A stretch of 64,000 nucleotides of DNA from a phage: NCBI GenBank assembly GCA_025677605.1, contig GCA_025677605.1_4110.1. One strand, given 5' to 3'. The notes below the pieces were generated by a model. That model did not search any database. It saw only the letters and a program-made list of their open reading frames with translations, and was not told the origin of the DNA. The translations under genes were made by a program, and so were the position numbers. Shown here in pieces: positions 39,973 to 53,776 of this stretch. Each line of letters begins with the position of its first letter. Within the stretch, counting starts at the first letter, position 1.

Positions 39973-39980
39973 TGTAAAAC

Positions 39981-40008: not shown

Positions 40009-40054
40009 GTACTTTTTTAAAAATAGTTTTCAGTACTAGCCACCAGCAAACAAT

Positions 40055-40095: not shown

Positions 40096-40147
40096 ATATA
40101 TAATAGCAAAGGGACTGACCGGAGTCAATCCCTTTTTTCAATTTATT

Positions 40148-40297
40148 TTATGCCTCGCGAGGGTTGCGATATGTGATAGCGTTCGGGTACATTTGTTTTA
40201 AGTTATTCCACGCCTGGTTAACACTGTATCCGCTGGACCGTATCAGTTGATGCATACCTTTACCCAAAAACGTAACTTCGAAAATGTATTCTTTCAT
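40148..40297 (-). CDS. hypothetical small protein (below ORF-track cutoff)
   Basis: 49 aa MKEYIFEVTFLGKGMHQ...; ATGA overlap with upstream ORF. Confidence 0.35.
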   Translation of the reverse strand: MKEYIFEVTFLGKGMHQLIRSSGYSVNQAWNNLKQMYPNAITYRNPREA

Positions 40298-40467
40298 GCT
40301 ACGGCCCCCTTGTCGGCTTTACCTTTACGCCAGGACGTTACTAATTGTTCGCGTTGCCATAAGTCGAGTGATACAAAAAGTTTTGCGGTATCACCCTTCG
40401 GATATTCGCCAGTAGTACCCATCCGATAAAACAAATCTTTCAGTACTGACAATTCTACATGGATCAT
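40294..40467 (-). CDS. hypothetical small protein (below ORF-track cutoff)
   Basis: 57 aa MIHVELSVLKDLFYR...; RBS aggag 9 nt upstream. Confidence 0.4.
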   Translation of the reverse strand: MIHVELSVLKDLFYRMGTTGEYPKGDTAKLFVSLDLWQREQLVTSWRKGKADKGAVA

Positions 40468-40468
40468 T

Positions 40469-40558
40469 TTAGATAACTCCTGCTTTGCTTAAGTAAACTA
40501 ATACGGCCTGTACTGCCATAATGATTGCAATTACTACTATGAACGGATTCATGTGCAT
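40469..40558 (-). CDS. possible hydrophobic mini-peptide
   Basis: 29 aa MHMNPFIVVIAIIMAVQAVLVYL...; single predicted helix. Confidence 0.25.
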   Translation of the reverse strand: MHMNPFIVVIAIIMAVQAVLVYLSKAGVI

Positions 40559-40645
40559 AACTGTTACCCTTATATGGTGGGGAGAAAACTTCTCCCCTTG
40601 ATGTAATTAATTATACAGTACTGTGATACTTTGTCAAATACTTTT

Positions 40646-40858
40646 TTAATCTTTCAGCCAATGATCTTGGATGAATTTTTCACCGAAGCCTTGCTGCATG
40701 GATTGTAACAGGCGTTCACGGTGTGCGGCGGCAAACTGCTCAGTACTATGCGTTACACCTGGTTGATATCTGGATTCACCATTGGGGGCGATGTATTGTA
40801 CATCCCACGGTTTAGCGTTAGTATCAGACCATTTACGAACGATTAGTTGACCTTGCAT
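40646..40858 (-). CDS. hypothetical small protein
   Basis: start moved to MQGQLIVRKW (ATG 40856-40858); ORF-track extension is the reverse of the 5' hairpin. Confidence 0.5.
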   Translation of the reverse strand: MQGQLIVRKWSDTNAKPWDVQYIAPNGESRYQPGVTHSTEQFAAAHRERLLQSMQQGFGEKFIQDHWLKD

Positions 40859-40944
40859 TTTTCTTTCCTCAGTACTGGGGAGAATCATTTCTCCCCTTCA
40901 TGTAACTTATTATACAGTACTATAATCTATTGTCTAGTACTTTT

Positions 40945-41139
40945 TTAAAGTTTATGTATCAGTTCTTTATCTAAGCGATAGCGTACATTATTAATAGTAA
41001 CGGCATTGTTTTTAATGCTACGCTGTACAGGTCCACCAGCAATAACAAACGTTGCCTTATTACCCCGAACAATGATAGCACTTCCTGGATTGCCGTATTC
41101 ATCTTGTACTAAAATACTTGATAAGTTTTCCATTTTCAT
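40945..41139 (-). CDS. hypothetical small protein
   Basis: 64 aa; RBS aagaggaa. Confidence 0.5.
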   Translation of the reverse strand: MKMENLSSILVQDEYGNPGSAIIVRGNKATFVIAGGPVQRSIKNNAVTINNVRYRLDKELIHKL

Positions 41140-41293
41140 TTCCTCTTAGTAGGGGAAGATGTTTCCCCTTCATGTAAAACATTATACACTATCTTTCAGT
41201 ACTGTCAATTACTTTTTAGTACTTATTTAAACGCTCTCAATCGCATTCTAACGAGCTAATCTATTTTGTAGTACTATCGGATAGGTATATACT

Positions 41294-41323
41294 AAAAAGC
41301 CCACCAGCGTTAACCAGTGGGCT
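41294..41323 (-). terminator. rho-independent terminator
   Basis: AGCCCAC...GTGGGCT hairpin followed by T-run on minus strand. Confidence 0.5.
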
Positions 41324-41329
41324 ATAATC

Positions 41330-41473
41330 TTACATCTTGCGGATAATCTTAACAGTATCTTTCACCGATTTACCGTCTTGCTGGCATTGTTCGATCATTG
41401 CGTATTGTTCTGCGGTCAGATCTTCGCCAGTTTTTGCCAGTACTGCTTCGATGAATGAATCCAGTGCGATCAT
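41330..41473 (-). CDS. hypothetical small protein (below ORF-track cutoff)
   Basis: 47 aa MIALDSFIEAVLAKTGEDL... Confidence 0.35.
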   Translation of the reverse strand: MIALDSFIEAVLAKTGEDLTAEQYAMIEQCQQDGKSVKDTVKIIRKM

Positions 41474-41572
41474 TTTGTTTCTCTCTTAGGTTAAGTTAAC
41501 TACTGTTTATAAAACTTATTATACAGTACTATCAAACTATGTCAATATCTTTAATAGTACTGGTAATATATT

Positions 41573-41752
41573 TTAGCGGTAGTCGTCGTATGCTTTATTC
41601 ACCTGGCGAATGTAACTTTCAAAGGCTTCGTCTACCGTTTCATACTCCCGAACATAATCACCATAGGAAACTACATACATCCCTTTTTGATCTTCAAACG
41701 TCATGATGATAGAATCCAGGCCGATGATTTCAGTTTTTGCGATGATAGCCAT
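41573..41752 (-). CDS. hypothetical small protein (MAII family)
   Basis: start moved to MAIIAKTEII with RBS aaggaa; paralog of 45097..45309 with the same promoter sequence upstream. Confidence 0.5.
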   Translation of the reverse strand: MAIIAKTEIIGLDSIIMTFEDQKGMYVVSYGDYVREYETVDEAFESYIRQVNKAYDDYR

Positions 41753-41834
41753 TTTTAATTCCTTAGTAGTGTAGTTGATAAAATCTATTATGCCAGTACT
41801 ATCAATCTTTGTCAATAGTACTGTGATAATATTT

Positions 41835-42047
41835 TTAATCGATAATGGTTAATGTAAAGTTATAATCACCGCATCGATATAGCACGTTATTCCCAAATGT
41901 TCCAACCAATCGCACATCACACAAAACGCCAGTTTTTTCTTTTACTTCCTTGATACTTGTAACTCCTGTAATATCTTTATTAAAGTATTCATGGTCTGAA
42001 AATAAAACTTGTTTTGCATTTTTCAATTTCGACCGGATATTAGCCAT
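41835..42047 (-). CDS. hypothetical small protein
   Basis: 70 aa; ATG 42045-42047. Confidence 0.5.
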   Translation of the reverse strand: MANIRSKLKNAKQVLFSDHEYFNKDITGVTSIKEVKEKTGVLCDVRLVGTFGNNVLYRCGDYNFTLTIID

Positions 42048-42142
42048 TTTGTTTTCTCTCTCTGTTAGTGGGGAGAACTATTCTCCCCTTGATGTAAACT
42101 ATTATACAGTACTATAATCTATTGTCAAACTATTTTTTAATA

Positions 42143-42484
42143 TTATTCGAAATCTTCTGGACCGGACTGATAATCATCTTCACCGTATGCACTTTCTAAC
42201 TTCTCGCCAGTGCAATCATCAGTTAGTGAGTCATCCTCATAGTTCACGTCTACGCCCGTGATGTAAAACTGGCTATCGTATGGATCATTGAAATTAATTT
42301 TCTGAATGTTTACAATAACTGTATTGATGCCCAGGACACCGCCATCAGCCGTTACAAAGTACTGATAGTTTTCACATCCACCACTATTGAAACCGTAATT
42401 GATTTCGGCCCGACCATCATTTAAACGCAGTGCCTGAGCGATGAATTCGTTTTCAAAGTTAGATTGAGCAATTGCAATAGTCAT
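42143..42484 (-). CDS. hypothetical acidic protein
   Basis: 113 aa; ATG 42482-42484. Confidence 0.5.
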   Translation of the reverse strand: MTIAIAQSNFENEFIAQALRLNDGRAEINYGFNSGGCENYQYFVTADGGVLGINTVIVNIQKINFNDPYDSQFYITGVDVNYEDDSLTDDCTGEKLESAYGEDDYQSGPEDFE

Positions 42485-42583
42485 GATTCGTTTCCTTATT
42501 ACCAGGGGAAACGGTTTCCCCTTGCTATGTAAAACATTATACTTGATTCTAAGTACAATGCAAGTACTTTTTGCAAAATACTT

Positions 42584-42766
42584 TTAATCCCTTTGATACT
42601 CACATAACGCCATATCATACGCAATTGACGCTGATTTGAAATCATCGTGTCGCTCAATCTCTTTCATGTCAACATAGATGATCCATAGGTTTACGTCTTC
42701 CTGGCGTATGATAACGGCAGGTTTACCGATGATATGTGATGCCGCTAGTTCGATTGGATTAAACAT
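42584..42766 (-). CDS. hypothetical small protein
   Basis: 60 aa; RBS aaggag. Confidence 0.5.
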   Translation of the reverse strand: MFNPIELAASHIIGKPAVIIRQEDVNLWIIYVDMKEIERHDDFKSASIAYDMALCEYQRD

Positions 42767-42799
42767 TGTAGTACTCCTTATTAGATTGATATATTTTAT

Positions 42800-42840
42800 T
42801 TACACTTCCGCACCCTGTGGGCTAGTGAGCTATCTCTCAA
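42800..42840 (-). repeat. conserved noncoding element, copy 4
   Basis: ccgcaccctgtgggctag; hairpin 42859-42886. Confidence 0.45.
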
Positions 42841-43108
42841 TGAATATATAATAGCAAAATGGCTGACCGAAGTCAACCACTTTTTTCATTTATTTTTAGC
42901 TTTTAGAATCGCCGCTTTTCGCGTCATGCCTTGCTTGATGTACTCCTTTACTTTCGCTTTACGTGCTTTCGCTTTATCTGCTTTCGTTTTAGGAGTACTG
43001 TAAATTAAACCGTTAGGATTCATTTAAATCACCATAAAGAATAGATAGGTTACTAACAATGCCGCGATCAATGCACCGATCACCGCCGAACTGTAATAAG
43101 CCAATGAT

Positions 43109-43261
43109 TTCATTTTTTAGCCTGGAAGTAATGTTTAATTTGTGCGGCGGTCAATGCACAATTACGCAGGAAGTTTTCTGTATAACTGCGACGAGTACTG
43201 AAAGAAAATTGACCTTTGCCGTTGCCGATAGTAACATCAAACCGAGCATTATATTGTTTCA
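43109..43261 (-). CDS. hypothetical small protein (below ORF-track cutoff)
   Basis: 50 aa MKQYNARFDVTIGNGKGQF...; followed by two further mini-ORFs 43023..43112 and 42885..43022. Confidence 0.3.
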
Positions 43262-43575
43262 TTTTGATTCTCCTAGTATCAGGGGAGAACCATTTCCCCC
43301 CCCTCTATGTAAAACATTATACAGTACTAAAAACTAATTGCAAGTACTATTTTTTAGATTTACGCAAACTTTCTACCATCTCAGGAGTAAGGCCCGGCGG
43401 GTAGGAAACCACTTCATCAACGAAACGTAAAGGGAATACCCCAGCGAAAGGTGAACATGCTTTCTTAGTATTACTCTTTTTTGATGCTTTCATTTCATAT
43501 TCCTTAATTAGTGGGAAGTACTATTTCTCCCCTTCATGTAAAACATTATACAGTACTAAAAACTAATTGCAAGTA

Positions 43576-43818
43576 TTATTTTAAACTTTGTGCGACTAAT
43601 TTCGCACGGTCAATCATATACTGCCATTTTTTGATCTCTTCTGGTAGAAAACGATATTCACCAATAACAATAGTGATACACTTTTCAGCCTGGTCAATGT
43701 ATGTAGTGTCAATCTCGACTTGAACGGGTACACGTTCGCCGTAATCAGTGCCAGGGATAATACAATCATTATCATAAGTAACAGTAGTAGCAGTGTCTTT
43801 GATTAAAATTGTTTCCAT
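43576..43818 (-). CDS. hypothetical small protein
   Basis: 80 aa; ATG 43816-43818. Confidence 0.5.
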   Translation of the reverse strand: METILIKDTATTVTYDNDCIIPGTDYGERVPVQVEIDTTYIDQAEKCITIVIGEYRFLPEEIKKWQYMIDRAKLVAQSLK

Positions 43819-43888
43819 TATACTTTCCTCGTTAGGTGTAAGGGGAAAAAGTTTCCCCTCTATGTAAACAATTATACAGTACTGAAAA

Positions 43889-44098
43889 CTAATTGCAAGT
43901 ATTATTTTCTAAAAAATGATTGTATGCTGCATCAACCACTCTTTCGATAACATACGCCAACGGCACGTATCCAACTACATGACTACAATAGAAAGGACTA
44001 CGATTAGAATCATCGTATGCAAATACTTTACCAGGTACGGCATCAATCACATACATATTAACCTTTAAGATGTCGATCTTATCCTGTACAGTAAGCAT
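43889..44098 (-). CDS. hypothetical small protein
   Basis: start moved to MLTVQDK (ATG 44096-44098). Confidence 0.45.
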   Translation of the reverse strand: MLTVQDKIDILKVNMYVIDAVPGKVFAYDDSNRSPFYCSHVVGYVPLAYVIERVVDAAYNHFLENNTCN

Positions 44099-44099
44099 A

Positions 44100-44270
44100 T
44101 TACGCCGCCTTATCAGTACTAGCAACCGGACGGATACGGGCCATCGCCTGGGCTTGTTCTACGCTGTATTGTTCGTATAGTCTGCATTCTTCCGGTGTAG
44201 GAATAGCATCAATACGTTTCATTGGTTTAATGATGCTTTCAACTTCATTCAGTACTTGATTAACGTTCAT
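44100..44270 (-). CDS. hypothetical small protein (below ORF-track cutoff)
   Basis: 56 aa MNVNQVLNEVESIIKP... Confidence 0.35.
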   Translation of the reverse strand: MNVNQVLNEVESIIKPMKRIDAIPTPEECRLYEQYSVEQAQAMARIRPVASTDKAA

Positions 44271-44321
44271 GGTATTATCCTCAATATTAGCGGCCTAAAT
44301 CAACCGCTAACGATGTTTTGA

Positions 44322-44591
44322 TTAATAGGTGTATGGTTGACGCTCAAACAATGAATAGACGTTATACGCCCCGCTAATGGGCTTCGCTGGCAAATCAATT
44401 TTATATTGTTCACGCTTAAAGATAATAAAACGGCAATTGTTTTTTACATCAAAATTGATTGAACGTTCCAGGAGTTTTCCATCGTGTACAAATACAAGAT
44501 AACCGCTTGGTACTTGTTTTGTAGTACTGGTTGCAACCATAGACCGACGAACATGCGTACCTGCATCGATTAAAGTACTGATATTTTTCAT
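44322..44591 (-). CDS. hypothetical protein
   Basis: 89 aa; ATG 44589-44591. Confidence 0.5.
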   Translation of the reverse strand: MKNISTLIDAGTHVRRSMVATSTTKQVPSGYLVFVHDGKLLERSINFDVKNNCRFIIFKREQYKIDLPAKPISGAYNVYSLFERQPYTY

Positions 44592-44671
44592 TATACTATC
44601 CTCTTAAGTTAATTTAATTTCTTTCCCCTATGCAGACACTATATCAAAGTATCTGCATAAAGTAAAGCTAA

Positions 44672-45016
44672 TTAAAGATCTTTTTTGCGTTTAACATCAG
44701 TTACCGAACTGTAAACAGTGATATTATTGTCACGGCAAAAACGGGAAAGATAAGAACCGCGTAAAAACTCTTTACCTTCCATATCAATAACCTTGCTAAA
44801 TTCATCCATTGCTACGGTGTCAAAGTGATCCCCGTATCCATATTGGAACGGCACGTTTACTACTTCAATAAAATTACCATCAATTTCTACGTCTACACTT
44901 AAAGAGAAATAAGTGTTACCATATGAAGCCTGGAACCAACGCCGAGCGGCAATATGTACAACTTCAACAGAAGACAGGTTGATATTTTGTGCTGTGATAG
45001 TGTTGATGTTAGCCAT
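44672..45016 (-). CDS. hypothetical protein (paralog of 38875..39198)
   Basis: 114 aa; ...YGYG...DVKRKKDL. Confidence 0.55.
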   Translation of the reverse strand: MANINTITAQNINLSSVEVVHIAARRWFQASYGNTYFSLSVDVEIDGNFIEVVNVPFQYGYGDHFDTVAMDEFSKVIDMEGKEFLRGSYLSRFCRDNNITVYSSVTDVKRKKDL

Positions 45017-45096
45017 TTTTAGTTTCCTCAGTTGTTTTGATAAAATCTATTATGCCAGTACTATCAATCTATGTCAATAGTACTGTGATAATAATT

Positions 45097-45309
45097 TTAC
45101 TTACTTTCTTTCGATGCTTTATGTTGTGCAACTGCCATTACTACATCAGCACGAACAAAGTTTTTAACCGTGTCAGTGTAATAATTGATTGCATCGTCTA
45201 TATCTGCGAACGTCCGATACATACCGCACCAAGATACTTTATAACCTGCTTTCACTTGTTCCAGCTTAACCAGTGATTTGTTTACTTTGATTTTAGTAAT
45301 GATAGCCAT
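45097..45309 (-). CDS. hypothetical small protein (MAII family)
   Basis: 70 aa MAIITKIKV... Confidence 0.5.
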   Translation of the reverse strand: MAIITKIKVNKSLVKLEQVKAGYKVSWCGMYRTFADIDDAINYYTDTVKNFVRADVVMAVAQHKASKESK

Positions 45310-45391
45310 TTTTTGTTTCCTCTTAGTTGTCTTGATAAAATCTATTATGCCAGTACTATCAAACTATGTCAATAGTACTGTGATAATATTT

Positions 45392-45535
45392 TTACTTACT
45401 TTTTGCTTTCTTTGCTGCTTCCACCTGGTCGGCCCACTCTTTACCCCATACTTGAGCATTATAGTGATACTGACAAAGAGCAACGCCCCGCTTCAAACCA
45501 GTAATAGATTTTTTACCACATTGACAAGTTTTCAT
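45392..45535 (-). CDS. small Cys-rich protein (possible zinc ribbon; below ORF-track cutoff)
   Basis: 47 aa MKTCQCGKKSITGLKRGVALCQYH...; paralog of 39287..39469. Confidence 0.4.
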   Translation of the reverse strand: MKTCQCGKKSITGLKRGVALCQYHYNAQVWGKEWADQVEAAKKAKSK

Positions 45536-45622
45536 TTTAGTTTCCTCTTAGTGGGGAGAACCATTTTCTCCCCTTGATGTAATGTATTATACTTTATCTG
45601 ATTTACTTTGCAAGTACTTTTT

Positions 45623-45850
45623 TTAATTTAATTCATCCAGGCAAAGGATACGCTCAACGCCCAAATCAGTTAAACTAATAGACGGCACTTGATAGGTTTC
45701 AACGTATTCTACACTCGCCCACTGACCGAACTCATTCACCGCCCAGGTATTCATTGCAAAATGTAATTCCGCACCTTTCTTATTAGTAATTACAGCAACA
45801 GTAGAAGAATTGCCAGTAGTACCAGATACGCGAGTGATTACGATAGCCAT
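45623..45850 (-). CDS. hypothetical small protein
   Basis: 75 aa; ATG 45848-45850. Confidence 0.5.
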   Translation of the reverse strand: MAIVITRVSGTTGNSSTVAVITNKKGAELHFAMNTWAVNEFGQWASVEYVETYQVPSISLTDLGVERILCLDELN

Positions 45851-45920
45851 TGTTTTGATTCCTATTCAGTAGTTGATGTATGTATTATCGCAGTACTTAA
45901 AACTATTGTCAAACTATTTT

Positions 45921-46073
45921 TTAAAGTTTATCAATGATTGATGCCGTTTCATTGATAGTCTTGCCGTGTTTTGCACACGCGATAACTGCTTTAAATTCCT
46001 TTGATGACCAATCTTTTTTACTGCATACTGACATTACTTGTAAAGTGAAACAATCCAGTTCATAAGTATTCAT
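45921..46073 (-). CDS. hypothetical small protein (below ORF-track cutoff)
   Basis: 50 aa MNTYELDCFTLQVMSVCSKK... Confidence 0.3.
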   Translation of the reverse strand: MNTYELDCFTLQVMSVCSKKDWSSKEFKAVIACAKHGKTINETASIIDKL

Positions 46074-46253
46074 CTTTATATCCTCAGTTAGTTAAGGTGT
46101 CTCGCCTTGATGAAATTAATTATACGCTAATCTCTTAATCGTGCAAGTACTTTTTATTAGTTTTTGCAAAATACTTTAAACGCCCGCAATCGCATTCTAA
46201 CGACCTTAACGCCACCAGCTAGGGCGATGCATCAGATAATCAGTTTAATGCGT

Positions 46254-46267
46254 TAGAATCGATTCTA
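46254..46267. promoter_or_regulatory. perfect 14-bp palindrome TAGAATCGATTCTA (candidate operator)
   Basis: seen directly; half-site ATCGCATTCTAACG recurs at about 41236 and 51443. Confidence 0.4.
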
Positions 46268-46299
46268 GGCGGTGCTGGGGGCATGGTAAACGATAAACA

Positions 46300-46327
46300 C
46301 AAAAAAGCCCACTGTTTAAGGTGGGCT
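46300..46327 (-). terminator. rho-independent terminator
   Basis: AGCCCAC-tgtttaag-GTGGGCT with T-run on minus strand, just downstream of the 46349 stop. Confidence 0.55.
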
Positions 46328-46348
46328 AGTGATTCAGTACTTTAATTG

Positions 46349-46831
46349 TTATGCTTCAACTTTGCGATGAGCTTCGATCCATTCCTCGCGAGTCAATCCG
46401 CTTTCTTTGATAGCATCCAGTACTACGGCAATGCAGTTACCGCGTACTGGTACAGTGTATTCCTCGCCATTATCCAGAACTACCGGCACGCGTTCCTGAA
46501 TCCATTTTTTAGCTTTTACTTCTGGCTTGTCTTCCCCGTATTTCGCTGCCAGGGCTTTACGTGCCATTTCGGTTACTACTTCCAGATCAAGCCCAGCGAC
46601 GGCGGCGTTAATATCTTCAATCGTTTTCTGCAATTCAGCTTCGCGTGCTGCCTTCTCAGCTTCAAGTGCCGCCGCTTTATTAGCTTGTAGTTCTTTCGCT
46701 TCGCTGTACGCAATGTTAAAATTGTTGCGTACTGCTTTCATGGTATCGCTATCCAGTTCAGCCAGGATCTCAGCCGCTACGTTAGTTTCATTTGCTACCA
46801 GTGCTTTGATGAATGATTTTACATTAGCCAT
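46349..46831 (-). CDS. hypothetical Ala/Glu-rich protein (locally higher GC)
   Basis: start at MANVKSF (ATG 46829-46831) behind RBS gaggaa; coiled-coil-like AAALEAEKAAREAELQK. Confidence 0.55.
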   Translation of the reverse strand: MANVKSFIKALVANETNVAAEILAELDSDTMKAVRNNFNIAYSEAKELQANKAAALEAEKAAREAELQKTIEDINAAVAGLDLEVVTEMARKALAAKYGEDKPEVKAKKWIQERVPVVLDNGEEYTVPVRGNCIAVVLDAIKESGLTREEWIEAHRKVEA

Positions 46832-46884
46832 TATATAATTCCTCAATTAAAGTTTAGTTTACGTTTATTAGTGTATCAAAGTTT

Positions 46885-46948
46885 TCTTGACGTGTCCAGT
46901 TTTTCGTTCGACTTACTGGCGGTCTACTTAGTGTTCCCCGTCTTGATG
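46885..46948 (-). other. structured RNA element, diverged copy C
   Basis: CCAGT/ACTGG hairpin and CCCCGTCTTGATG tail; promoter TTGACA, 16 nt spacer, TAGAAT at 46955-46982. Confidence 0.35.
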
Positions 46949-47030
46949 TAATACATTCTACGCTTTTCTTCGGTAATGTCAACTACTTTTTTAAAACTAT
47001 TTTCAAAGTATCTCAGTACTACACCACTAC

Positions 47031-47058
47031 AAAAAAAGCCCACTGTTTAAGGTGGGCT
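47031..47058 (-). terminator. rho-independent terminator
   Basis: same AGCCCAC...GTGGGCT hairpin as 46300-46327. Confidence 0.55.
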
Positions 47059-47075
47059 ATTGATTCAGTACTAGA

Positions 47076-47375
47076 TTATAAACAGTTAATTACTCCTGTG
47101 TGCGTTACTTTCTCAGTATCCATAACCGTGACCGAACCGCGTTTTTTCTTCGCATCATAATAAATTGTTGTGCTACCTTTCGCATCTTCTTCATGGAACG
47201 GGCCATTTTTAAATGCTTCTGGCTGTAATTCCAGATCCTTTAAAACAATCTCGCCAGTACTTTCATCGGTCATTGCTACGGTGCACTGAATGAATTTATC
47301 ACCAGGTACATCTAACGACGCATTAACAGCGAAAGAGGAAACAGATAAAGCCAGGGCGATGATTGCTACTTTCAT
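47076..47375 (-). CDS. putative secreted/periplasmic small protein
   Basis: 99 aa; signal peptide MKVAIIALALSVSSFAVNAS. Confidence 0.55.
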   Translation of the reverse strand: MKVAIIALALSVSSFAVNASLDVPGDKFIQCTVAMTDESTGEIVLKDLELQPEAFKNGPFHEEDAKGSTTIYYDAKKKRGSVTVMDTEKVTHTGVINCL

Positions 47376-47460
47376 TTGATTATCCTTAGTTACCAGGGGA
47401 ACCGTTCCCCCCCTTGCTATGTAAAATATTATACAGTACTAAAAACTAATTGCAAGTACT

Positions 47461-47697
47461 TTATGATTTTTTATAAAACATTTCGGCAGTGATATTTTTA
47501 CCCGTTGGTTGTACTTTATCCAGGATTTTTTGATGCCCGGACCGTCCAAATGAATATGATCCGTAAACCGTAAACCAGTAGTTACCCTCAGTGTTTACAT
47601 GTACAGCACAATAGGGAACGCCCCGCGATTCATCACTAGTAAAGTGTGCTACCGTTCCCGTTACATTCGAAGACGTTGATTTGATTTGTTCGACCAT
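47461..47697 (-). CDS. hypothetical small protein
   Basis: 78 aa; ATG 47695-47697. Confidence 0.5.
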   Translation of the reverse strand: MVEQIKSTSSNVTGTVAHFTSDESRGVPYCAVHVNTEGNYWFTVYGSYSFGRSGHQKILDKVQPTGKNITAEMFYKKS

Positions 47698-47805
47698 TTT
47701 CTTATTCCTTAGTTACCAGGGGAACCGCTCCCCCTATGCAAAACATTATACGCGTTTAAAAACTATTAGCAAGTATTTTAATAAAAAGTATTTGAAAAAT
47801 AGTTC

Positions 47806-47834
47806 TTGACAACTGCATCCAATACTGGCATAAT
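47806..47834 (+). promoter_or_regulatory. plus-strand sigma70-like promoter
   Basis: TTGACA, 17 nt spacer, CATAAT on plus strand in an otherwise minus-strand region. Confidence 0.45.
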
Positions 47835-47840
47835 TACTAC

Positions 47841-47947
47841 ATAAAGACAAAACAGTCTCTAACCCACCGGGTGCATAGATCCGTCTATTAAATGATTCAG
47901 TACTGAAAAAAGAAAGGGGATCAATTGATCCCCTCGTTGTTATTTTG
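47841..47947 (+). ncRNA. candidate small RNA containing the conserved CCCACCGGGTGC element
   Basis: promoter upstream; palindromic hairpin GGGGATCAATTGATCCCC at 47916-47933 followed by T-rich tract; no ORF. Confidence 0.25.
47906..47933 (-). terminator. rho-independent terminator (bidirectional)
   Basis: GGGGATCAATTGATCCCC with T-run on minus strand after the 47940 stop. Confidence 0.5.
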
Positions 47948-48161
47948 TAAGGTATAAACAGAAGTCACCTTTATTTGCTACGCCGCCAGTGTAACGCGAT
48001 GAATAGTTAGAAACGTCCTGGACTTCTGCTATTACCAGTGTATCATCATTCAATTCGTCGCAGAAGCAAACGGCTGGATCTTTTACGCCGATATTGTCGG
48101 CATGTTCCCGCATAGATTTAACCAGTGCTTCAAGTTGGGAAAGGGTAGTAATGTTAGCCAT
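47940..48161 (-). CDS. hypothetical small protein
   Basis: start moved to MANITTLSQ (ATG 48159-48161). Confidence 0.5.
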   Translation of the reverse strand: MANITTLSQLEALVKSMREHADNIGVKDPAVCFCDELNDDTLVIAEVQDVSNYSSRYTGGVANKGDFCLYLTK

Positions 48162-48246
48162 TTTATTTTCCTCATTACCAGGGAGAACCATTTCTCCCCT
48201 CTATGTAAACCATTATACAGTACTAAAAACTAATTGCAAGTACTTT

Positions 48247-48450
48247 TTAATTTAATTGCTTAAAAACATACTCAAAGACACGACGCACATCATTGATCAT
48301 CGCCTGGCGGTTAGCAGGTAACGCATCAGGATCGCCACTATCCCAGGCATTGATAAAACTCCCCAAATCATGATAGATTTTATTCTGTAAGCCGATTAAC
48401 TGCAATTCTTTTTCTTCAAGCTCTTTGATACGTTCAATTAAATCACTCAT
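48247..48450 (-). CDS. hypothetical small protein
   Basis: start moved to MSDLIERIKELEE with RBS aagga. Confidence 0.45.
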   Translation of the reverse strand: MSDLIERIKELEEKELQLIGLQNKIYHDLGSFINAWDSGDPDALPANRQAMINDVRRVFEYVFKQLN

Positions 48451-48467
48451 TATATAATCCTTAGTAC

Positions 48468-48752
48468 TTAACTGTAAGATCCGCAACGGTCGCAGTAGTG
48501 CCCGTCCTCGTCATCGTCAACGAATTGACCGACGAAATGATCTACTTTCGCTTTCAGGTTATTATAATCGTTTTCTACTTCCTTTAAACGCTTCTGGTAG
48601 TATTCCAGTGCTTTAAGATATGCCGCATCAGCAGTTTTCTCCTGCATAGCTAAATTCATGCCACGCGTTTCATCGTACAGCCAAAAACCATCGGTGCACT
48701 GGCTAATAGATAATGACTTGCTTAGTACTGTATAGTTAATTACTTTGCTCAT
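48468..48752 (-). CDS. hypothetical protein
   Basis: 94 aa; C-terminal HYCDRCGSYS. Confidence 0.5.
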   Translation of the reverse strand: MSKVINYTVLSKSLSISQCTDGFWLYDETRGMNLAMQEKTADAAYLKALEYYQKRLKEVENDYNNLKAKVDHFVGQFVDDDEDGHYCDRCGSYS

Positions 48753-48837
48753 TAGATAATCCTCAGTAAAGGCGGGAACTATTCCCCGCCTCGATATAAA
48801 GTATTATACGTTAATCTAACTACAATGCAAGTACTTT

Positions 48838-49110
48838 TTAGTTTTTTAATTCTTTTACTGCATCAGGTGCGACAGAACCATCAATGTATTGAACATCGTT
48901 TTCAACTTCACGGGCGGCATCATTCAGCAGATCAAAATTAAATTCCATTTCTTCCAGATCATCAAAATCAGGCTCATAACCATTAATTGTTGAATAAGTC
49001 CAAGTACCTTTTTCATAAGTCACGACACTTACATCAGGGAAGAAATCTTGCACATGATCCATTGCATCCCGAACCAGTTGATGTGCAGTTGTGATATTTA
49101 AAGTTTTCAT
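48838..49110 (-). CDS. hypothetical protein
   Basis: 90 aa; ATG 49108-49110. Confidence 0.5.
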   Translation of the reverse strand: MKTLNITTAHQLVRDAMDHVQDFFPDVSVVTYEKGTWTYSTINGYEPDFDDLEEMEFNFDLLNDAAREVENDVQYIDGSVAPDAVKELKN

Positions 49111-49203
49111 TTTGTTACCCTTTTAGTGTGAGCGGGGAACCACTCCCCGCCTCGATATAAAGTATTATACGCTTTTAAACTTAGTATGCAAGTACTTTTT
49201 AAA

Positions 49204-49878
49204 TTAATATTCGATTGATTCTACTACGCCATCAATAACATTGAATTGATATTCGTTACCCTCAATCAGTGCCGTAATGTTTTCAGTAGTGAATTGATCC
49301 TCATATGCATTCTCTAAATCACGGTACAACTTGCGGGATAATTCACGAATAGTTTCAGTGAGTAGTTCCTCAAGCTCATTAACTAACGCTTCTTGTTTTG
49401 CGGTTAAATCAGTGTAAGCCGATTCAATGTACCCGCTTACAGTGTTTTCATGCGAGTAGTTGGAGTGAGAACGCTTTACACTCATTGCCAAATCATCTTC
49501 ATTCAGCAGGTGACGGATTGAGCGATACTTAGTTAATGCTCTAACCTTGCGTAAAAACTTCTCAGCGTCAACGTGGTCAGTACTAATTGATGCACCGTCA
49601 CCCTGCGACCAAAAACCACTGAATTGTATTTCAGCGTCATTAATGCCATATTCCGGTAGTACTGTTTCTTTATAGTATTCAATTTCACTTTCAGAAAAAT
49701 AATCGTCGTTTAAGTTTTTTTCACGTTCCCGAACCAGTTCGATAGCTGACGTTTGTTGTTCTGCGTTCAATTCAGAAAAATCCATAACGAAAGTAGTATT
49801 AGTGACAGTTTTCGCTTTGCAACCCTCATTCAATTCAGAAAAATCCATAACGAAAGTAGTAGTAGTGATAGTTTTCAT
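49204..49878 (-). CDS. hypothetical protein with N-terminal tandem duplication
   Basis: 224 aa; 21-aa unit TTFVMDFSELN repeated twice from a 63-bp direct DNA repeat near 49743-49870. Confidence 0.55.
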   Translation of the reverse strand: MKTITTTTFVMDFSELNEGCKAKTVTNTTFVMDFSELNAEQQTSAIELVREREKNLNDDYFSESEIEYYKETVLPEYGINDAEIQFSGFWSQGDGASISTDHVDAEKFLRKVRALTKYRSIRHLLNEDDLAMSVKRSHSNYSHENTVSGYIESAYTDLTAKQEALVNELEELLTETIRELSRKLYRDLENAYEDQFTTENITALIEGNEYQFNVIDGVVESIEY

Positions 49879-49946
49879 TTTGTAACTCTCATTCAGTAGT
49901 TGATGTAAGTATTATACGCTTTTAAAAACAATTGTCAAACTATTTT

Positions 49947-50021
49947 ATCAGGGGAGTTTTTCGTGTGCCTTACTCCTGGGCTACTTAACGGGGAGTTACT
50001 TATTTCGTTCCCCGTCCTGAT
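49947..50021 (-). other. conserved three-stem structured RNA element, copy B
   Basis: near-identical to 39901-39972; flanked by P1 (TTGCAA, 16 nt spacer, TATAAT) and P2 (TTGACA, 16 nt spacer, TATAAT). Confidence 0.5.
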
Positions 50022-50109
50022 GTAAAACATTATACGCCTTTAAACATAGTTTGCAAGTACTTTTTATCAAATAGTTTTCAGTACTGGCATTGTACTTAAT
50101 CACTTTACT

Positions 50110-50145
50110 ATAGATACACTTCCGCACCCTATGGGCTATCGCCTT
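50110..50145 (-). repeat. conserved noncoding element, copy 5
   Basis: ccgcaccctatgggctat. Confidence 0.45.
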
Positions 50146-50197
50146 GTGTCCGGCTTGTAAGTATTATCTCACTAAGCCGGATAATGGTCAAGTACTT

Positions 50198-50464
50198 TTA
50201 TTCAAGTACTGCAATCTTTTTAGTACTGTACACGGTAACACGGTTTCCCTTGCGGTCGTGCTTTATTTCTACCACTCGACGCGATACACTATCAGGACTT
50301 TTTAACGCCGCTAACCAGTACTGAATTGATCGGGCTGTACTTTGCTTTACTACGGCCCAACGTTTACCCCTGGCTGATTGTACGCCCATATCTTTAAACG
50401 TTGCACCGTCAACCTTTGCCGCTTGCCGAGCTTGTTCACGCGTCGCAAAGTATATAATATTCAT
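50198..50464 (-). CDS. hypothetical protein (paralog of 38384..38779)
   Basis: start moved to MNIIYFATRE; 3' end about 33 nt near-identical to 38407-38440. Confidence 0.55.
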   Translation of the reverse strand: MNIIYFATREQARQAAKVDGATFKDMGVQSARGKRWAVVKQSTARSIQYWLAALKSPDSVSRRVVEIKHDRKGNRVTVYSTKKIAVLE

Positions 50465-50546
50465 GCTGTTACCCCTATCGTTGTTGTATAAAAGAAATCT
50501 ATTATAAAGTACTATCACCGTGCAATAGTACTTTTAATCTATTCTC

Positions 50547-50786
50547 TTACATGCCAACCATTGCAGCACGGATCGCAGTAGTGCTATACTTGAATCCGTC
50601 CGGTGTTTTATCTTGTCCAGTCTGTTCTAAAAATAGCATCATATGACGGGCCGCATCATTTCGATTAGTGTTAGCGGCAATAAAGTCCAGGGCCAACCGG
50701 TATAATGATTCATCGTTATTAATCCAAAGGCTTACATTCCATTGAGTTTTGTTTTTGTGACCTAAGAACATTTTTGATTTAGCCAT
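50547..50786 (-). CDS. hypothetical small protein
   Basis: 79 aa; ATG 50784-50786. Confidence 0.5.
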   Translation of the reverse strand: MAKSKMFLGHKNKTQWNVSLWINNDESLYRLALDFIAANTNRNDAARHMMLFLEQTGQDKTPDGFKYSTTAIRAAMVGM

Positions 50787-50879
50787 TTTTAAATCCTCTT
50801 AATTATAGTGGGGAACTATTCCCCACCGGATAGAAAGTATTATACATTAATCTAATTACTTTGCAAGTACTTTTTTAAC

Positions 50880-51242
50880 TTATTCGTAAATCTTGCCACT
50901 GTCAGCCCATACCAGGAAACGAGGCATATTATCCCATGCATCTTGTTTTAAGTTTAAGCCGTGCAATACTTCGGTACTTTCCATCCCAGGCACTGGTTTA
51001 CTATACACCGCAAATAGTTCGCCCATGTACTGATAAGCCATCGTTAAATCACTGGCAATCATCTTGTGGATCATCGCATCAAGCATCACAGTAGCGGCGT
51101 ATTGTTCACGCTTAAGCGGCAACATTGCAATCAATTCCCGATAAGCTGATATATGAATCTTTACAGTCTCAGCCGGAAGATCTTTCATCTCTTCGCGAAA
51201 GTTAACCAGGTTAGCAATGATTTTAGTGATTTGAGTCGCCAT
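50880..51242 (-). CDS. hypothetical protein
   Basis: 120 aa; ATG 51240-51242. Confidence 0.5.
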   Translation of the reverse strand: MATQITKIIANLVNFREEMKDLPAETVKIHISAYRELIAMLPLKREQYAATVMLDAMIHKMIASDLTMAYQYMGELFAVYSKPVPGMESTEVLHGLNLKQDAWDNMPRFLVWADSGKIYE

Positions 51243-51534
51243 CGTTTTAATTCCTATTAAAGTGAGTTAGGAGCGTTTCCCCCGTCTCGATGTAAAACAT
51301 TATACGCCCTTAAACATAGTATGCAAGTACTTTCTACAAATACTTTTAAAATAGTTTTCTTTCTATATAGGAGTACTATCATTCAGTACTGAATCAATCC
51401 AGTGGTACAATTATTCAGTACTATACCCTTAAAACGGCCTCAATCGCGTTCTAACGCATTAATACACCTAAGCTATACATTTGCACCACTCCCAACAATC
51501 CAGGGCTTTACGGGCCGTTTAAACACCAGTACTG

Positions 51535-52044
51535 TTAAGAGTACTTTTTAAAATATTTTATTATTGTTTCCTTTGTAACTCCAAATTTTCTACCCAATGC
51601 AGTAGCACCATAAACGCGATCCCCTGGCTTATAATGTGTTATAATGTATTGTGTATCGTCGGCGGTCAAACGTGCCTTATCGTTATCATATCCCGTTAAA
51701 CGTGGTTTAACTAATCCAGAATCAAACGCATGTTTAACATTTTCGCTATTGGTTGCCCATTCCAACGCGGTGTAATGATTGTTCGCCTTTCCCTTTAAAT
51801 GATTAACTTGAACTATCTTATAGTGAGTTTTTGCAGCCCATGCGATTTGTTCCGCAGTAGGCGGTGATAGATAGTTATTAGCAACCAATCTATGAACAAA
51901 ATGATCCCCATCGTTTAACGATACTCTTTGATAACCTTTTTCGGTTATACGTGGTTTAAGATTGGTTGTAGTGCCAATCTTTCTAACATCCCCATACTCG
52001 CTAACTTCATATAAATTATTTTCTTTTAGTACCTTCCATTGCAT
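51535..52044 (-). CDS. HNH homing endonuclease
   Basis: 169 aa; LYEVSEYGDVRK...KGYQRVSL...HFVHRLVANNY typical of phage HNH endonucleases. Confidence 0.75.
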   Translation of the reverse strand: MQWKVLKENNLYEVSEYGDVRKIGTTTNLKPRITEKGYQRVSLNDGDHFVHRLVANNYLSPPTAEQIAWAAKTHYKIVQVNHLKGKANNHYTALEWATNSENVKHAFDSGLVKPRLTGYDNDKARLTADDTQYIITHYKPGDRVYGATALGRKFGVTKETIIKYFKKYS

Positions 52045-52118
52045 ACACGATCCCCTGATGTAACATTTATTTGATACTATTATATCATAAAAATATGTTC
52101 CATCTCATAAAATAGTAC

Positions 52119-52146
52119 TTGCATTCTGTACGGCATAGCGTATAAT
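52119..52146 (+). promoter_or_regulatory. plus-strand sigma70-like promoter
   Basis: TTGCAT, 16 nt spacer, TATAAT, then TACTACATAAG...CTAACCCACAGGGTGC element. Confidence 0.45.
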
Positions 52147-52200
52147 TACTACATAAGCCGGAAACAAGGCACTAACCCACAGGGTGCCGAGATCCGCCCA
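52147..52200 (+). repeat. conserved noncoding element, copy 7 (plus orientation)
   Basis: tactacataagccggaaacaaggcactaacccacagggtgccgagatccgcc. Confidence 0.45.
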
Positions 52201-52334
52201 AAATTCATATAATTTAAAAAGGATACACTCCCGCACCCTAGCAGGTCAAAGCACTTTCTCAGTACTGAATCATAGTACCATAGTACGCCCCAGGATGGCA
52301 AGCAAATTAATTAAAACTTTTTACACTTAGGCTA

Positions 52335-52363
52335 TTGCTTTTATAATTCAGTACTGCTATAAT
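52335..52363 (+). promoter_or_regulatory. plus-strand sigma70-like promoter
   Basis: TTGCTT, 17 nt spacer, TATAAT. Confidence 0.4.
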
Positions 52364-52374
52364 TATTTCATCAA

Positions 52375-52415
52375 GTCGAGAAAGACTCTAGCCCACCGGG
52401 TGCATAGTTACGCCC
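52375..52415 (+). repeat. conserved noncoding element, copy 8 (plus orientation)
   Basis: ctctagcccaccgggtgcatagttacgcc. Confidence 0.45.
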
Positions 52416-52587
52416 AAAATTCAGTACTAGATTATTTTTAAAAATATTCATCCAGGCGGTTGACATACCCCGCTAAAACTGGGATAATGTTTCCAGATTC
52501 AGAAAAATCTAACTCCAGATACTGCGGGGAAACCATCCCCACGCGGTAGGGGAACTATTGGAAAAAACAAAATAAAAATTTTGATTT

Positions 52588-52765
52588 AGCCGTCTATACA
52601 TCCAGACGTGTAACCATCTAGCCATCTAGCCGTCCAAACGTCTAGCAGTACAGCCATCTAGAAATCTAGCCATCTAGAAATCTAGCCATCCAGCCGTCTA
52701 GAGGGATAGCCATCTTTACTTCCAGACTTCTGGAGGGCTAGACATCTCTACGTCCAAAATCCACC
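52588..52765. repeat. CTAG-rich short direct repeat array
   Basis: about a dozen CTAG-containing 8-12 bp units (ccatctagcc, cgtctag, gaaatctagcc) within about 180 bp; no ORF. Confidence 0.6.
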
Positions 52766-53341
52766 CAGGGTTACTACGCCCAAAATCCGTCAGTACTATA
52801 CCATAGATCTATCTTTAAGAAGGGAGTATTCAGTACTGCCATCATAGTCCTCACTATGTTACCCTAGGAGGATGAAGACTATCATGTAGTACTGAATACT
52901 TTTAAGGGGAATATCATCACATTGCGTGATGCATTATATATTAGATTAATATCAGTACTGCTACCATTCTGTTAATAACAGTACTGTTTATATTACGAAA
53001 AAAGAGGTTGTCAAAGATGAACCACTGCATAGGAGGATTCAATCTCTTCTGTACTGTCTCACGACAGGAGGGTTAAGGCTCTGAATTGTTTGCGGCAATT
53101 CATCACTCTATGTAGAACATTATACAGTACTGAATCATAATGTCAATAGATTTCTTCCATTATTCAGTACTGAAAACATATCTTCTGTATCTCTTCAAAA
53201 CTCATTATATCCCACTAATCCTATATGTCCCAATGTAAATTTCAACTTTCGAAGATCCAACTTTTATTTCATAGGTACTCCAAAATTTTTACGATCCAGA
53301 TTTACGATGGAGTACTAACCAACTTTTTGCTGGAGCCTCAA

Positions 53342-53400
53342 GGGGTATTCGGAATTTTCCCCAATGGGTATTCGGGATTTTTGACGAAGGGTAAATTGAA
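53342..53400. repeat. tandem direct repeat GGGTATTCGGAATTTT
   Basis: two adjacent near-identical 18-20 bp units. Confidence 0.5.
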
Positions 53401-53590
53401 CTTTTTTGAATAGGTGATTGGGAGTTTTCAGTACTGGTCATTCCGTGATTACTTTTGATTGGAAATGATTTGTTTTGCAATTGTTCAGTACTGTAAAATT
53501 ATGTAAATTTTGGGCGACTTCATTTGCCTACTTAGTGGGATATCAGTACTGAATCATTCCTGCACTCTAGTACTCAATACTCTTCACTAC

Positions 53591-53653
53591 AATGATTATA
53601 AATGATTACTTAAATGTTTATATATGATTACTTATGACTACCTATGATTACGG
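53591..53653. repeat. ATGATTAC iteron-like repeats
   Basis: 5 copies of ATGATTA(C/T) in 63 bp. Confidence 0.55.
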
Positions 53654-53776
53654 GGTTTAGCCTGGGGAGAATCCTAGTGATCGCATTTGTCCAGGCTGAA
53701 TTTTAACATATGCAACATATGTTAAAGCCTGTATAATGCTTGCACTACGGAGCTTCCCCTAGCTATATGTGTTTAA

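Follow-up and report, generated by a model that had tools for sequence, protein, structure and literature searches.

The window analyzed here is a stretch of 64,000 nucleotides (nt) of phage DNA (NCBI GenBank assembly GCA_025677605.1, contig GCA_025677605.1_4110.1), and this report is concerned with a noncoding hub in it that is rich in promoters, repeats and palindromes. A first reading, made from the letters alone (hereafter the sequence-only reading), had placed the hub at 52050-53770 and had taken it for a candidate regulatory centre, replication origin or packaging site. The features that it listed are present at or near the positions it gave. The stretch is indeed free of sizeable open reading frames (ORFs), the longest one in 52045-53776 having 63 amino acids (aa), and three sigma-70-like promoters (P1, P2 and P3) are found on the plus strand. 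The CTAG-rich repeat array consists of 21 in-phase units with a period of 8 base pairs (bp) at 52588-52755, the tandem repeats placed at 53342-53400 are 2.4 copies of a 23-bp unit at 53339-53393, and the iterons placed at 53591-53653 are six units of the ATGATTAC type at 53591-53651. The palindrome CAGTACTG, said to be densest here, occurs at 5.8 copies per kilobase (kb) in 52045-53776 versus 0.77 per kb elsewhere, and the hub does divide the cassette genes from the array of small YKEFY genes.

It is the extent of the hub that has to be revised. A megablast search with the hub sequence returned 37 phage records, all of them from Asteriusvirus (121Q/PBECO4-like jumbo coliphages of ~350 kb), with phage A4 as the best match (94.5%). 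The phage of the window is itself an Asteriusvirus. In these relatives the counterpart is continuous, gene-free and ~2 kb long (positions 3663-5662 in A4 and 2651-4618 in 121Q), and when 12 relatives were aligned most 25-nt windows of the hub were 80-99% conserved, which is equal to or above the conservation of the flanking genes. Since the hub of the relatives is continuous, and that of the phage studied here is split by an insertion of ~600 bp, the conserved noncoding unit is 51243-53776 and thus larger than the sequence-only reading had it. The insertion contains an ORF of 169 aa (51535-52044) that resembles a NUMOD4 homing endonuclease (Pfam NUMOD4, E = 4.7e-07). An inverted-repeat pair, I2, links the part of the hub on the left of the insertion (51243-51534) with P1. 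The small ORFs of the hub (62-63 aa, 53225-53480) were rejected as genes, because their start codons are not conserved and they lie in the least conserved and indel-rich part of the hub, and the mini-ORFs that follow AGGAGG at 52866, 53032 and 53066 were rejected for their unconserved starts and many indels.

The comparison with relatives indicates that the hub is very probably the boundary region between a direct terminal repeat (DTR) of ~21 kb and unique DNA, and that it holds the right-hand end of the chromosome. The window contains a collapsed single copy of the repeat, so that its presence at both ends is not directly visible here, and the evidence comes from phages whose ends have been mapped. 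In the record of phage G17 (MK327931, 370,817 bp), positions 1-20668 are 100% identical to positions 350150-370817, an exact end repeat of 20,668 bp; its source paper derived a terminal redundancy of ~20 kb from read coverage, and a two-fold coverage over the repeat has been reported in the literature for both G17 and CBB. Because the hub of G17 occupies 19040-20934, the G17 repeat ends within the hub, 266 bp short of the next gene; the corresponding overrun of the hub into unique DNA is 244 bp in the window. For fEgEco12, DTRs of 20,993 bp were determined by PhageTerm, with which restriction digests agree. The records of fEgEco12, BF17 and CRJP21 have the opposite orientation, and their first nucleotide is homologous to the edge of the G17 repeat, which corresponds to position 53532 of the window. 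All four phages read ...GGCAGACTTCCTCTGCCTACT^ at this end (...GCCTACT; ^ marks the end), and the junction in the window reads GGGCGACTTCATTTGCCTACT^TAGTGGGATATCAGTACTGAA, which puts the end after 53532, that is, between 53532 and 53533.

The position of this end is marked by a motif, GACTTC-N11, whose spacing to the end is also found, as GACTTY-N11, at the record starts of Klebsiella phage Muenster, Serratia phage BF and XbC2. A repeat of 1..20030 was annotated by PhageTerm in the Muenster record. The record of GAP32 was opened elsewhere and shows the motif uncut, with GACTTC-N11 followed by TAGTGG exactly as in the window. Since this spacing recurs in these records, the position of the cut and the motif have been kept across Asteriusvirus, Alcyoneusvirus, Eneladusvirus and Mimasvirus. 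The GACTTY-N11 position is shared by four records of Asteriusvirus and three of other genera, as is the case for fixed, unpermuted ends. The packaging site or ends proposed by the sequence-only reading are thereby corroborated: the experimentally mapped termini of the relatives fall in the hub at 53532/53533, and iterons straddle the cut. That reading had named conservation in relatives and the mapping of termini as the way to refute it, and the conservation observed and the termini obtained by coverage and PhageTerm speak in favor of ends.

At the opposite end of the repeat, G17, fEgEco12 and CRJP21 begin with AGGTTACCCGCC..., a sequence absent from the window. The window instead contains CGACTA^AGCATTAATAGCC...AACAGTCCGAAACTATTTCATAC, which resembles the left end of Muenster, and the left termini of Muenster and G17 share (G/A)CTA^AG. 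As the left sequence matches the Muenster end, the left terminus was placed at 32284/32285, which gives a repeat of 21,248 bp. An ORF of 273 aa without a Pfam match (31382-32203) lies directly outside this terminus. The left end of the DTR (32285-32360) is thus like that of the Klebsiella phage Muenster, with which it shares AACAGTCCGAAACTATTTCATAC, and unlike that of the closer relatives G17, fEgEco12 and CRJP21, which suggests that terminus modules may have been exchanged between genera. It may be added that insertions specific to this phage are found at both edges of the DTR, namely the NUMOD4-like ORF with its surroundings (51535-52136) and the 273-aa ORF.

Several points weigh against this assignment of the ends. 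The ends of the present phage have been placed by homology to those of its relatives; its left-terminus sequence is unlike that of G17, and the adjacent 273-aa ORF has no counterpart in G17 and fEgEco12. Some of the database records may have been turned to the orientation of earlier ones, so that the independent cases among the seven are G17, fEgEco12 and Muenster. In addition, a search of the left DTR terminus for an iteron set shared with the right one yielded a single WATGATTA copy. On balance we regard the terminus assignment as well supported. The ~20-kb terminal repeats of these jumbo phages have already been published; in the searchable literature we found no description of the anatomy of the boundary, i.e. 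the cut motif, the flanking iterons and palindrome, the end-facing promoters and the repeat array. The coordinates of all these features are collected in Table 1.

Table 1. Features of the hub and of the terminal repeat, in window coordinates (^ marks the cut).
Feature	Position	Strand	Remarks
DTR, inferred	32285..53532		21,248 bp; one collapsed copy in the window; ends placed from relatives
Promoter-CCCAYMGGGTGC modules	33702, 36770, 40067, 42810, 50124	-	
Promoter-CCCAYMGGGTGC modules	47863, 52176, 52392	+	
Left conserved part of the hub	51243-51534		conservation 0.57-0.99 over 12 relatives; AGTACT palindromes inside
Cassette promoter TTGCAT-N16-TATAAT	reverse complement of 51299-51326	-	serves gene 50880-51242
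Phage-specific insertion	51535-52136	-	in none of the 12 aligned relatives
Promoter P1, TTGCAT-N16-TATAAT	52119-52146	+	-10 element and U1 kept in all relatives
Leader element U1, core CCCACAGGGTGC	52176-52187	+	follows P1
Promoter P2, TTGCTT-N17-TATAAT	52335-52363	+	CAGTACTG in spacer; both hexamers conserved
Leader element U2, ends ACGCCCAAAAT	core 52392-52403	+	follows P2; 96-99% conserved
Promoter P3, TTGACA-N17-GATAAT with TG	52460-52488	+	11/12 consensus match
GC hairpin CTGCGGGGAAACCATCCCCACGCGG	52522-52546	+	between P3 and the array; conserved; variant stem in EJP2
Met-box-like array	52588-52755		21 in-phase 8-bp units; period 8 by Tandem Repeats Finder (TRF)
Hairpin CATCACATTGCGTGATG	52915-52931		stem sequence varies among relatives, pairing retained
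Inward promoter TTGACA-N16-TATAAT	53119-53146	-	CAGTACTG in spacer; 12/12 consensus; faces the DTR early genes
Conserved block, TTTACGAT twice (53288, 53301) and GGTACTCCAAAATTTTT	53240-53335		conservation 0.91-0.97
23-bp repeat, 2.4 copies, GGGTATTCGG type	53339-53393		TRF; least conserved part of the hub, 0.42-0.58
Inner TGATTAC-type iterons GTGATTAC, TTGATTGG, ATGATTTG	53445-53472	+	60-87 bp inside the cut
Terminus motif GACTTC-N11-^TAGTGG	53516-53538	+	cut after 53532; from the record ends of relatives
Outer iterons, six ATGATTAC-type units	53591-53651	+	59-119 bp outside the cut, in unique DNA; kept in G17
Nested imperfect palindrome, ~105 nt	53658-53763		flanked by the outer iterons and the stop codon of the last YKEFY gene

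The surroundings of the cut are compatible with a role in end formation. Four exact copies of WATGATTA lie within 60 bp in the outer iterons, the sole such cluster in the window, and a repeat family (D15) pairs the inner with the outer iterons. The palindrome beyond the outer iterons is near-identical in G17 and folds far better than shuffled sequences on both strands (z = -5.6 and -5.1). The block at 53240-53335, which lies ~200-290 bp inside the terminus, has recognisable counterparts in Serratia phage BF and XbC2. There are established cases in which repeats flank a pac or cos cleavage site, and because of this and of their position the iterons and the palindrome are most likely signals that the packaging enzyme, terminase, recognises or processes. 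The sequence GCGACTTC was considered as a motif common to both termini and was rejected, as it is inverted at the left boundary of G17 and absent from that of the window.

Iterons are also a feature of replication origins, and the sequence-only reading had proposed an origin at this site; transcription from promoters without a gene, together with the iterons, would then start DNA synthesis. Phage T7 has promoter-associated secondary origins near its ends. The hub possesses an iteron cluster and three conserved promoters that have no gene to express, and the cumulative GC skew has its minimum at ~53.0 kb, where the sign changes apart from the switch in gene strand at 57.65 kb. This skew is hard to interpret, however. 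Elsewhere in these phages GC skew follows gene direction, and the YKEFY-type tandem family, ~18 small genes at 53777-57607 on the minus strand, has the skew sign of the plus-strand genes to its right. The flip therefore falls at the terminus (~53 kb) and not at the strand switch, because the YKEFY block carries the plus-strand type of skew; the anomaly is limited to these 4 kb of small paralogous genes and could stem from the unusual amino-acid composition of their products, and we judged the skew to be confounded as evidence for an origin. None of the usual components of an iteron-type origin (adjacent initiator gene, DnaA boxes, AT-rich unwinding element) was found: DnaA boxes (TTWTNCACA) are absent from both strands of the hub and at chance level in the window, no initiator-like gene lies beside the iterons or the hub, and the iterons straddle a mapped DNA end. 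The AT-rich DNA claimed for the hub is not there either, since its GC content of 0.33-0.41 (0.37-0.41 at 52.0-53.0 kb) is the same as or above that of the flanks. With a local skew inflection near 53 kb as what is left of it, we consider an origin in the hub to be very unlikely.

The most conspicuous element of the hub is the array of 8-bp units, which include AGCCGTCT, AGACGTGT, AAACGTCT, AGCCATCT and AGACATCT. The MET box, to which the methionine repressor MetJ binds, has the consensus AGACGTCT and occurs as 8-bp boxes, two or more in tandem (PMC4239095). The most frequent base at each position of the array gives A-G-A-C-A-T-C-T, which departs from AGACGTCT only at position 5, where A is narrowly ahead of G (10 vs 9), and 122 of the 168 positions of the array match the consensus. 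No other place in the 64 kb scored above the thresholds for 3, 5 or 10 boxes. An identical scan of E. coli K-12 4127500-4134000 (the metJ-metB-metL-metF locus), which served as a positive control, had its top matches in the metJ-metB intergenic region (AGAAGTTT AGATGTCC AGATGTAT TGACGTCC; 28/40 for five boxes) and then just upstream of metF (26/40); the best five boxes of the phage score 31/40. With a symmetrised position weight matrix (PWM) built from ten natural E. coli boxes, which were chosen by the scan, the phage boxes have a mean of 5.4 bits versus 4.3 bits for the natural boxes when each of these is left out in turn, the background being -4.7 +/- 3.8 bits (99th percentile, 4.4), and a positive score is obtained in only one of the eight phases. 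The arrays of verified relatives comprise 16-25 boxes, and their lengths differ by whole 8-bp units only. The array thus shares with the E. coli MetJ operators the strict 8-bp tandem phase and the CTAG junction between boxes, and in the same scan its boxes match those of metJ/metB and metF in quality. The two natural operators found by the scan have 4-5 boxes, and true met operators overlap a promoter, whereas the phage array has 21 boxes, is 4-5 times longer than those two, lies off the promoters and governs no methionine gene.

Similar arrays were found in other phages when the array was used as a BLAST query; the likeness to T5-like and T7-like phages is confined to the array itself. In other Rak2-like genera the array lies ~670-720 bp from the record start. 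In the T5-like phage PR1, 9 boxes (85% match) lie ~800 bp short of where its terminal repeat of 10,461 bp ends. The T5-like phages AhSzq-1 and Vibrio phage Quinn have 29 and 15 boxes, respectively, and nt 43-106 of the T7-like phage PGT2 hold 8 boxes. T5 itself and Muenster have no such array and retain the terminus architecture. The array-matching records (83 and 96) come from phages of Escherichia, Salmonella, Serratia, Erwinia, Pectobacterium, Cronobacter, Yersinia, Providencia, Vibrio and Aeromonas, so that the recorded hosts belong to the Enterobacterales, Vibrionales or Aeromonadales with the exception of one Xanthomonas phage. MetJ occurs only in Enterobacterales, Pasteurellales, Vibrionales, Aeromonadales and Alteromonadales (PMC4239095).

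Based on these similarities the array resembles a giant MetJ operator, and we hold it to be an evenly balanced question whether MetJ binds there. Several observations weigh against such binding, which is proposed from a sequence match. The commonest unit is AGCCRTCT, and position 3 is C in 10 of the 21 boxes and A in all ten natural boxes, which are themselves picks of a scan rather than footprinting data. Unlike true met operators the array does not overlap a promoter, and methionine genes are absent from its vicinity. XbC2 is recorded on Xanthomonas, of an order without MetJ, and the link with host range is confounded by phage phylogeny and by the composition of the databases. Literature searches for the array sequence, for MetJ or met boxes in bacteriophages and for MetJ decoy sites in phage genomes returned nothing relevant.

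The array could alternatively be bound by a protein of the phage, for example a ribbon-helix-helix protein or the small terminase subunit acting in packaging or partition, or it could be an unbound structural element. Ribbon-helix-helix centromere-binding proteins use short-period arrays, which speaks for such a binder, as does the constant position of the array, ~1 kb or less from an end of the genome, in three phage families; the departure of the commonest unit from AGACGTCT is moreover systematic. On the other hand, the arrays of unrelated T5-like, T7-like and Rak2-like phages converge on the consensus of one host protein, and T5 and Muenster keep the terminus architecture without the array, which makes the array dispensable for end formation. 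In a Pfam scan none of the 53 DTR ORFs had a MetJ or ribbon-helix-helix domain; this result counts against a binder encoded by the phage, and as it covers 64 of the ~350 kb of these genomes it also leaves a point against the MetJ reading. We consider a binder other than MetJ, or none, to be unlikely.

The promoters of the hub are conserved in a way that points to function. The -35 and -10 hexamers of P1-P3 are kept in all relatives, and all three promoters face the end and have no ORF downstream. The hexamers of P3 are invariant in the relatives and its spacer has been rewritten; P3 reads into the array, which begins ~95 nt past the likely start site, and Serratia phage BF has a promoter at the same position upstream of its array. 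The hexamers of the inward promoter (53146-53119) are kept even in EJP2, the most divergent relative. The description of the hub as a regulatory centre is therefore apt, as it has conserved promoters on both strands and an operator-like array. The combination of a sigma-70 promoter, ~25 nt and CCCAYMGGGTGC occurs 8 times in the window versus 0.3 times expected, only inside the DTR. The copy at 47863(+), situated between two genes of the minus strand, precedes a GC hairpin, GGGGATCAATTGATCCCC, and a T-rich tail, so that it looks like a small RNA gene.

These features raise the possibility that the hub is mainly a locus of non-coding RNA (ncRNA), in which P1-U1, P2-U2 and P3 with the array produce short regulatory or sponge RNAs and the repeats act in RNA. 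The conservation of the promoters next to diverging spacers, the eight promoter-CCCAYMGGGTGC modules including the copy at 47863(+), and the structured segment past P3 (52495-52590, z = -3.15) are in line with this idea. So is the related jumbo phage PA5oct, in which the 39-kb DTR is an early-transcribed region with two abundant ncRNAs (PMC7318152). However, a search of the whole window against Rfam 15 gave no match at gathering score, and its relaxed version, which went to E values up to 5, gave only miRNA and snoRNA matches at chance level (E 0.6-4); a scan of the window for tRNA and tmRNA was also negative, P1-P3 have no evident terminators, and evidence of covariation was not obtained. In the gene cassettes of the DTR the promoter-CCCAYMGGGTGC module is simply the 5' leader of an mRNA. 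The array unit is near-palindromic and the BLAST matches to arrays of other phages occur in either orientation, as would be expected if double-stranded DNA is recognised. An RNA-based reading is plausible for P1-U1 and P2-U2, and for the hub as a whole we think it doubtful.

Some further hairpins should be mentioned here. The hairpin at 52915-52931 reads CCACCAGC-ACAA/TTGT-GCTGGTGG in other relatives, with the 4-nt loop flipped in some of them, and a terminator is annotated at the homologous place in G17. The cassette promoters of the AAGTACTTGACA-N8-CAGTACTG-TATAAT type (-) each directly precede a GGGGAGAA...TTCTCCCC hairpin, examples in the intergenic regions of 33.5-44 kb being 35860-35930, 40580-40650 and 43840-43900. 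In the mRNA these hairpins would be located at the 5' end; the G17 annotation calls such hairpins terminators.

Taking together the conserved features, the terminus position in the relatives and the met-box match, we infer a hub with two jobs, a view towards which we lean: it would be a site at which ends are made and also a control module of early infection with a met-box-like array. In the first job, the DNA would be cut after 53532, eleven bases past GACTTC and directly before TAGTGG, with the iterons on both sides and the outer palindrome of ~105 nt being recognised or processed by the packaging enzyme. In the second, the ~1.4 kb inside the end would be an early control module read by the RNA polymerase of the host, by way of three gene-less sigma-70 promoters directed towards the end and one consensus promoter directed towards the early genes. 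On the likeliest reading, MetJ with its corepressor S-adenosylmethionine (SAM) would coat the array past P3. This may have one of two effects: MetJ could be soaked up, so that the methionine/SAM genes of the host are de-repressed, or a SAM-dependent protein block could form on the DNA near the chromosome end.

The architecture of the hub has a counterpart in phage T5. Repeat Region 3 of T5 (9194-10409) is a noncoding nest of repeats and palindromes that lies mostly inside the left terminal repeat, extends 270 bp into unique DNA, is conserved in T5-like phages, contains DnaA boxes and is a candidate injection stop signal (Davison, bioRxiv 10.1101/866236); the T5 record (AY587007) has direct repeat D (DRD) on both sides of the boundary. 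Both regions are noncoding, 1.2-2 kb long and rich in palindromes and in direct and inverted repeats, both surpass the adjacent genes in conservation, and both straddle the inner boundary of the DTR with an overrun of ~250-270 bp (270 in T5, 266 in G17 and 244 here). A short direct repeat occurs on both sides of the boundary (DRD in T5 and the TGATTAC iterons in the hub), and a homing endonuclease has been inserted nearby in each case, an HNH enzyme between the repeat regions of T5 and the NUMOD4-like one here. The T5-like phages PR1, AhSzq-1 and Quinn share the type of 8-bp met-box-like array with the hub, and T5 itself does not. The hub differs from the T5 region in having no DnaA boxes, LexA-like box, Fur-like palindromes or IRD'/IRC' pair. 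The jumbo phages for their part are myoviruses with a repeat twice as long, and homology with T5-like phages is limited to the array.

Given this likeness, the hub might be an injection stop signal of the T5 type, at which entry of the DNA pauses so that the terminal-repeat genes are expressed first. The shared architecture in which direct repeats flank the boundary, a DTR full of small genes with sigma-70 promoters, and the met-box arrays of PR1 and AhSzq-1 in the equivalent region would agree with such a role. Against it stand the absence of the DnaA-box pairs and IRD'/IRC' repeats that define the T5 region, and the lack of any report of two-step transfer in these myoviruses. In T5 this transfer depends on the pre-early proteins A1 and A2. 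When the 53 DTR ORFs were scanned generally against Pfam and PHROGs, with no search aimed at A1/A2, nothing was identified as a counterpart of A1 or A2; the scans returned only families of unknown function, a ParE-like domain and NUMOD4. A T5-type stop signal in the hub is, in our judgment, improbable.

As to the binding sites found in such regions, T5 (9332), PR1 (9486), AhSzq-1 (108639) and Quinn (312) have a LexA-like box, CTGTAT-N4-ATACAG, directly beside DnaA boxes, and the order in the candidate injection-stop regions of T5-like phages is LexA box, DnaA boxes, met-box array. No LexA box of the form CTGT-N8-ACAG is present in the window. The T5 direct-repeat-C/palindrome AAATGAGAATCATTATCATT (9470-9650) recurs several times in the Muenster hub (780-1320) and once in Serratia phage BF, and it agrees with the Fur-box consensus GATAATGATAATCATTATC at 14-16 of 19 positions. 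A Fur-box scan of the hub studied here gave no match of at least 14/19; T5, Muenster and Serratia phage BF have such matches.

The ends of T7 comprise a 160-bp terminal repeat, the short-repeat arrays SRL and SRR and the gene-less promoters phiOL and phiOR, and at the T7 junction pausing of RNA polymerase and hairpin intermediates play a part. The T7 end region is reportedly covered by Dunn and Studier in 1983, Chung and Hinkle in 1990 and Zhang and Studier in 2004. Like T7, the phage studied here has fixed ends with a DTR, short-repeat arrays beside the boundary, gene-less promoters that face the end and sequence that can form hairpins. By this analogy, the end-facing promoters and the palindrome could serve the formation of ends. 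T7 differs in the 160-bp length of its repeat, in using a phage RNA polymerase and in its unrelated repeats of the CCTAAAG type, whereas the promoters of the hub are of the sigma-70 type of the host. Phage SPO1 has a long terminal-repeat module for host takeover, with small early genes and host-type promoters. The present phage is similar to SPO1 and PA5oct in that a long DTR is packed with small early genes under host-type promoters, and in PA5oct highly expressed non-coding transcripts arise inside the DTR (PMC7318152). The descriptions of SPO1 and PA5oct concern genes; no boundary hub, cut-site motif or operator array is known to have been described for these phages.

Some properties of the window extend beyond the hub. 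The palindrome CAGTACTG occurs 58 times versus 0.8 times expected, with ten copies in 52045-53776; since 36 of the 58 copies are inside ORFs, it is over-represented genome-wide and not only in promoter spacers. A protein that binds this palindrome could not be assigned, and a literature search for it as a described phage motif gave unrelated primer sequences only. AGTACT occurs 269 times in the 64 kb, ~12-fold above the prediction from base composition (for instance at 95, 736, 14897/14923 and 18278/18319). Among the 53 ORFs of 32441-52044, one product has a ParE-like toxin domain (Pfam, E = 6e-11) and another has DUF7249. On the plus strand, 57692-63456 holds a run of genes for paralogous proteins of 300-400 aa; the product of 57692-58606, the sole member of the family that was scanned, is a Kelch-repeat beta-propeller (Pfam, E = 9e-25), and for homologues in G17 and 121Q the annotation reads "putative DNA condensation protein".

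In summary, the GACTTY-N11 motif common to four genera allows the true ends to be assigned in dozens of jumbo-phage records that were opened arbitrarily, and it defines a substrate for experiments on the terminase. Read as met boxes, what was a nameless "CTAG repeat" leads to a precise idea that is cheap to test, namely that a phage recruits or titrates the repressor of methionine and SAM synthesis of its host. The LexA-like and Fur-like boxes in hubs near the ends indicate that such hubs may collect binding sites for host proteins, and we tentatively suggest, as a possibility that we ourselves rate below even, that the terminal hubs of DTR phages are arrays of operator sites for DNA-binding regulators of the host, located within ~1 kb of a chromosome end. 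If so, a copy of the operators would be carried at both ends of the virion DNA, consisting of 21 MetJ boxes in the present phage, of LexA-like and DnaA sites together with either MetJ or (in T5) Fur-like sites in the T5-like phages, and of Fur-like sites in Muenster. Host repressors would then be soaked up, and the control of methionine/SAM synthesis, iron, SOS and replication would be re-programmed without any protein. Alternatively, a complex of host proteins would hold or protect the DNA end, which would be a concrete candidate for the injection stop signal of T5. The met-box arrays beside LexA-like and DnaA boxes in the candidate injection-stop regions of T5-like phages suggest tests in metJ, fur, lexA and dnaA mutants of the host, which may bear on the two-step transfer of T5 DNA.

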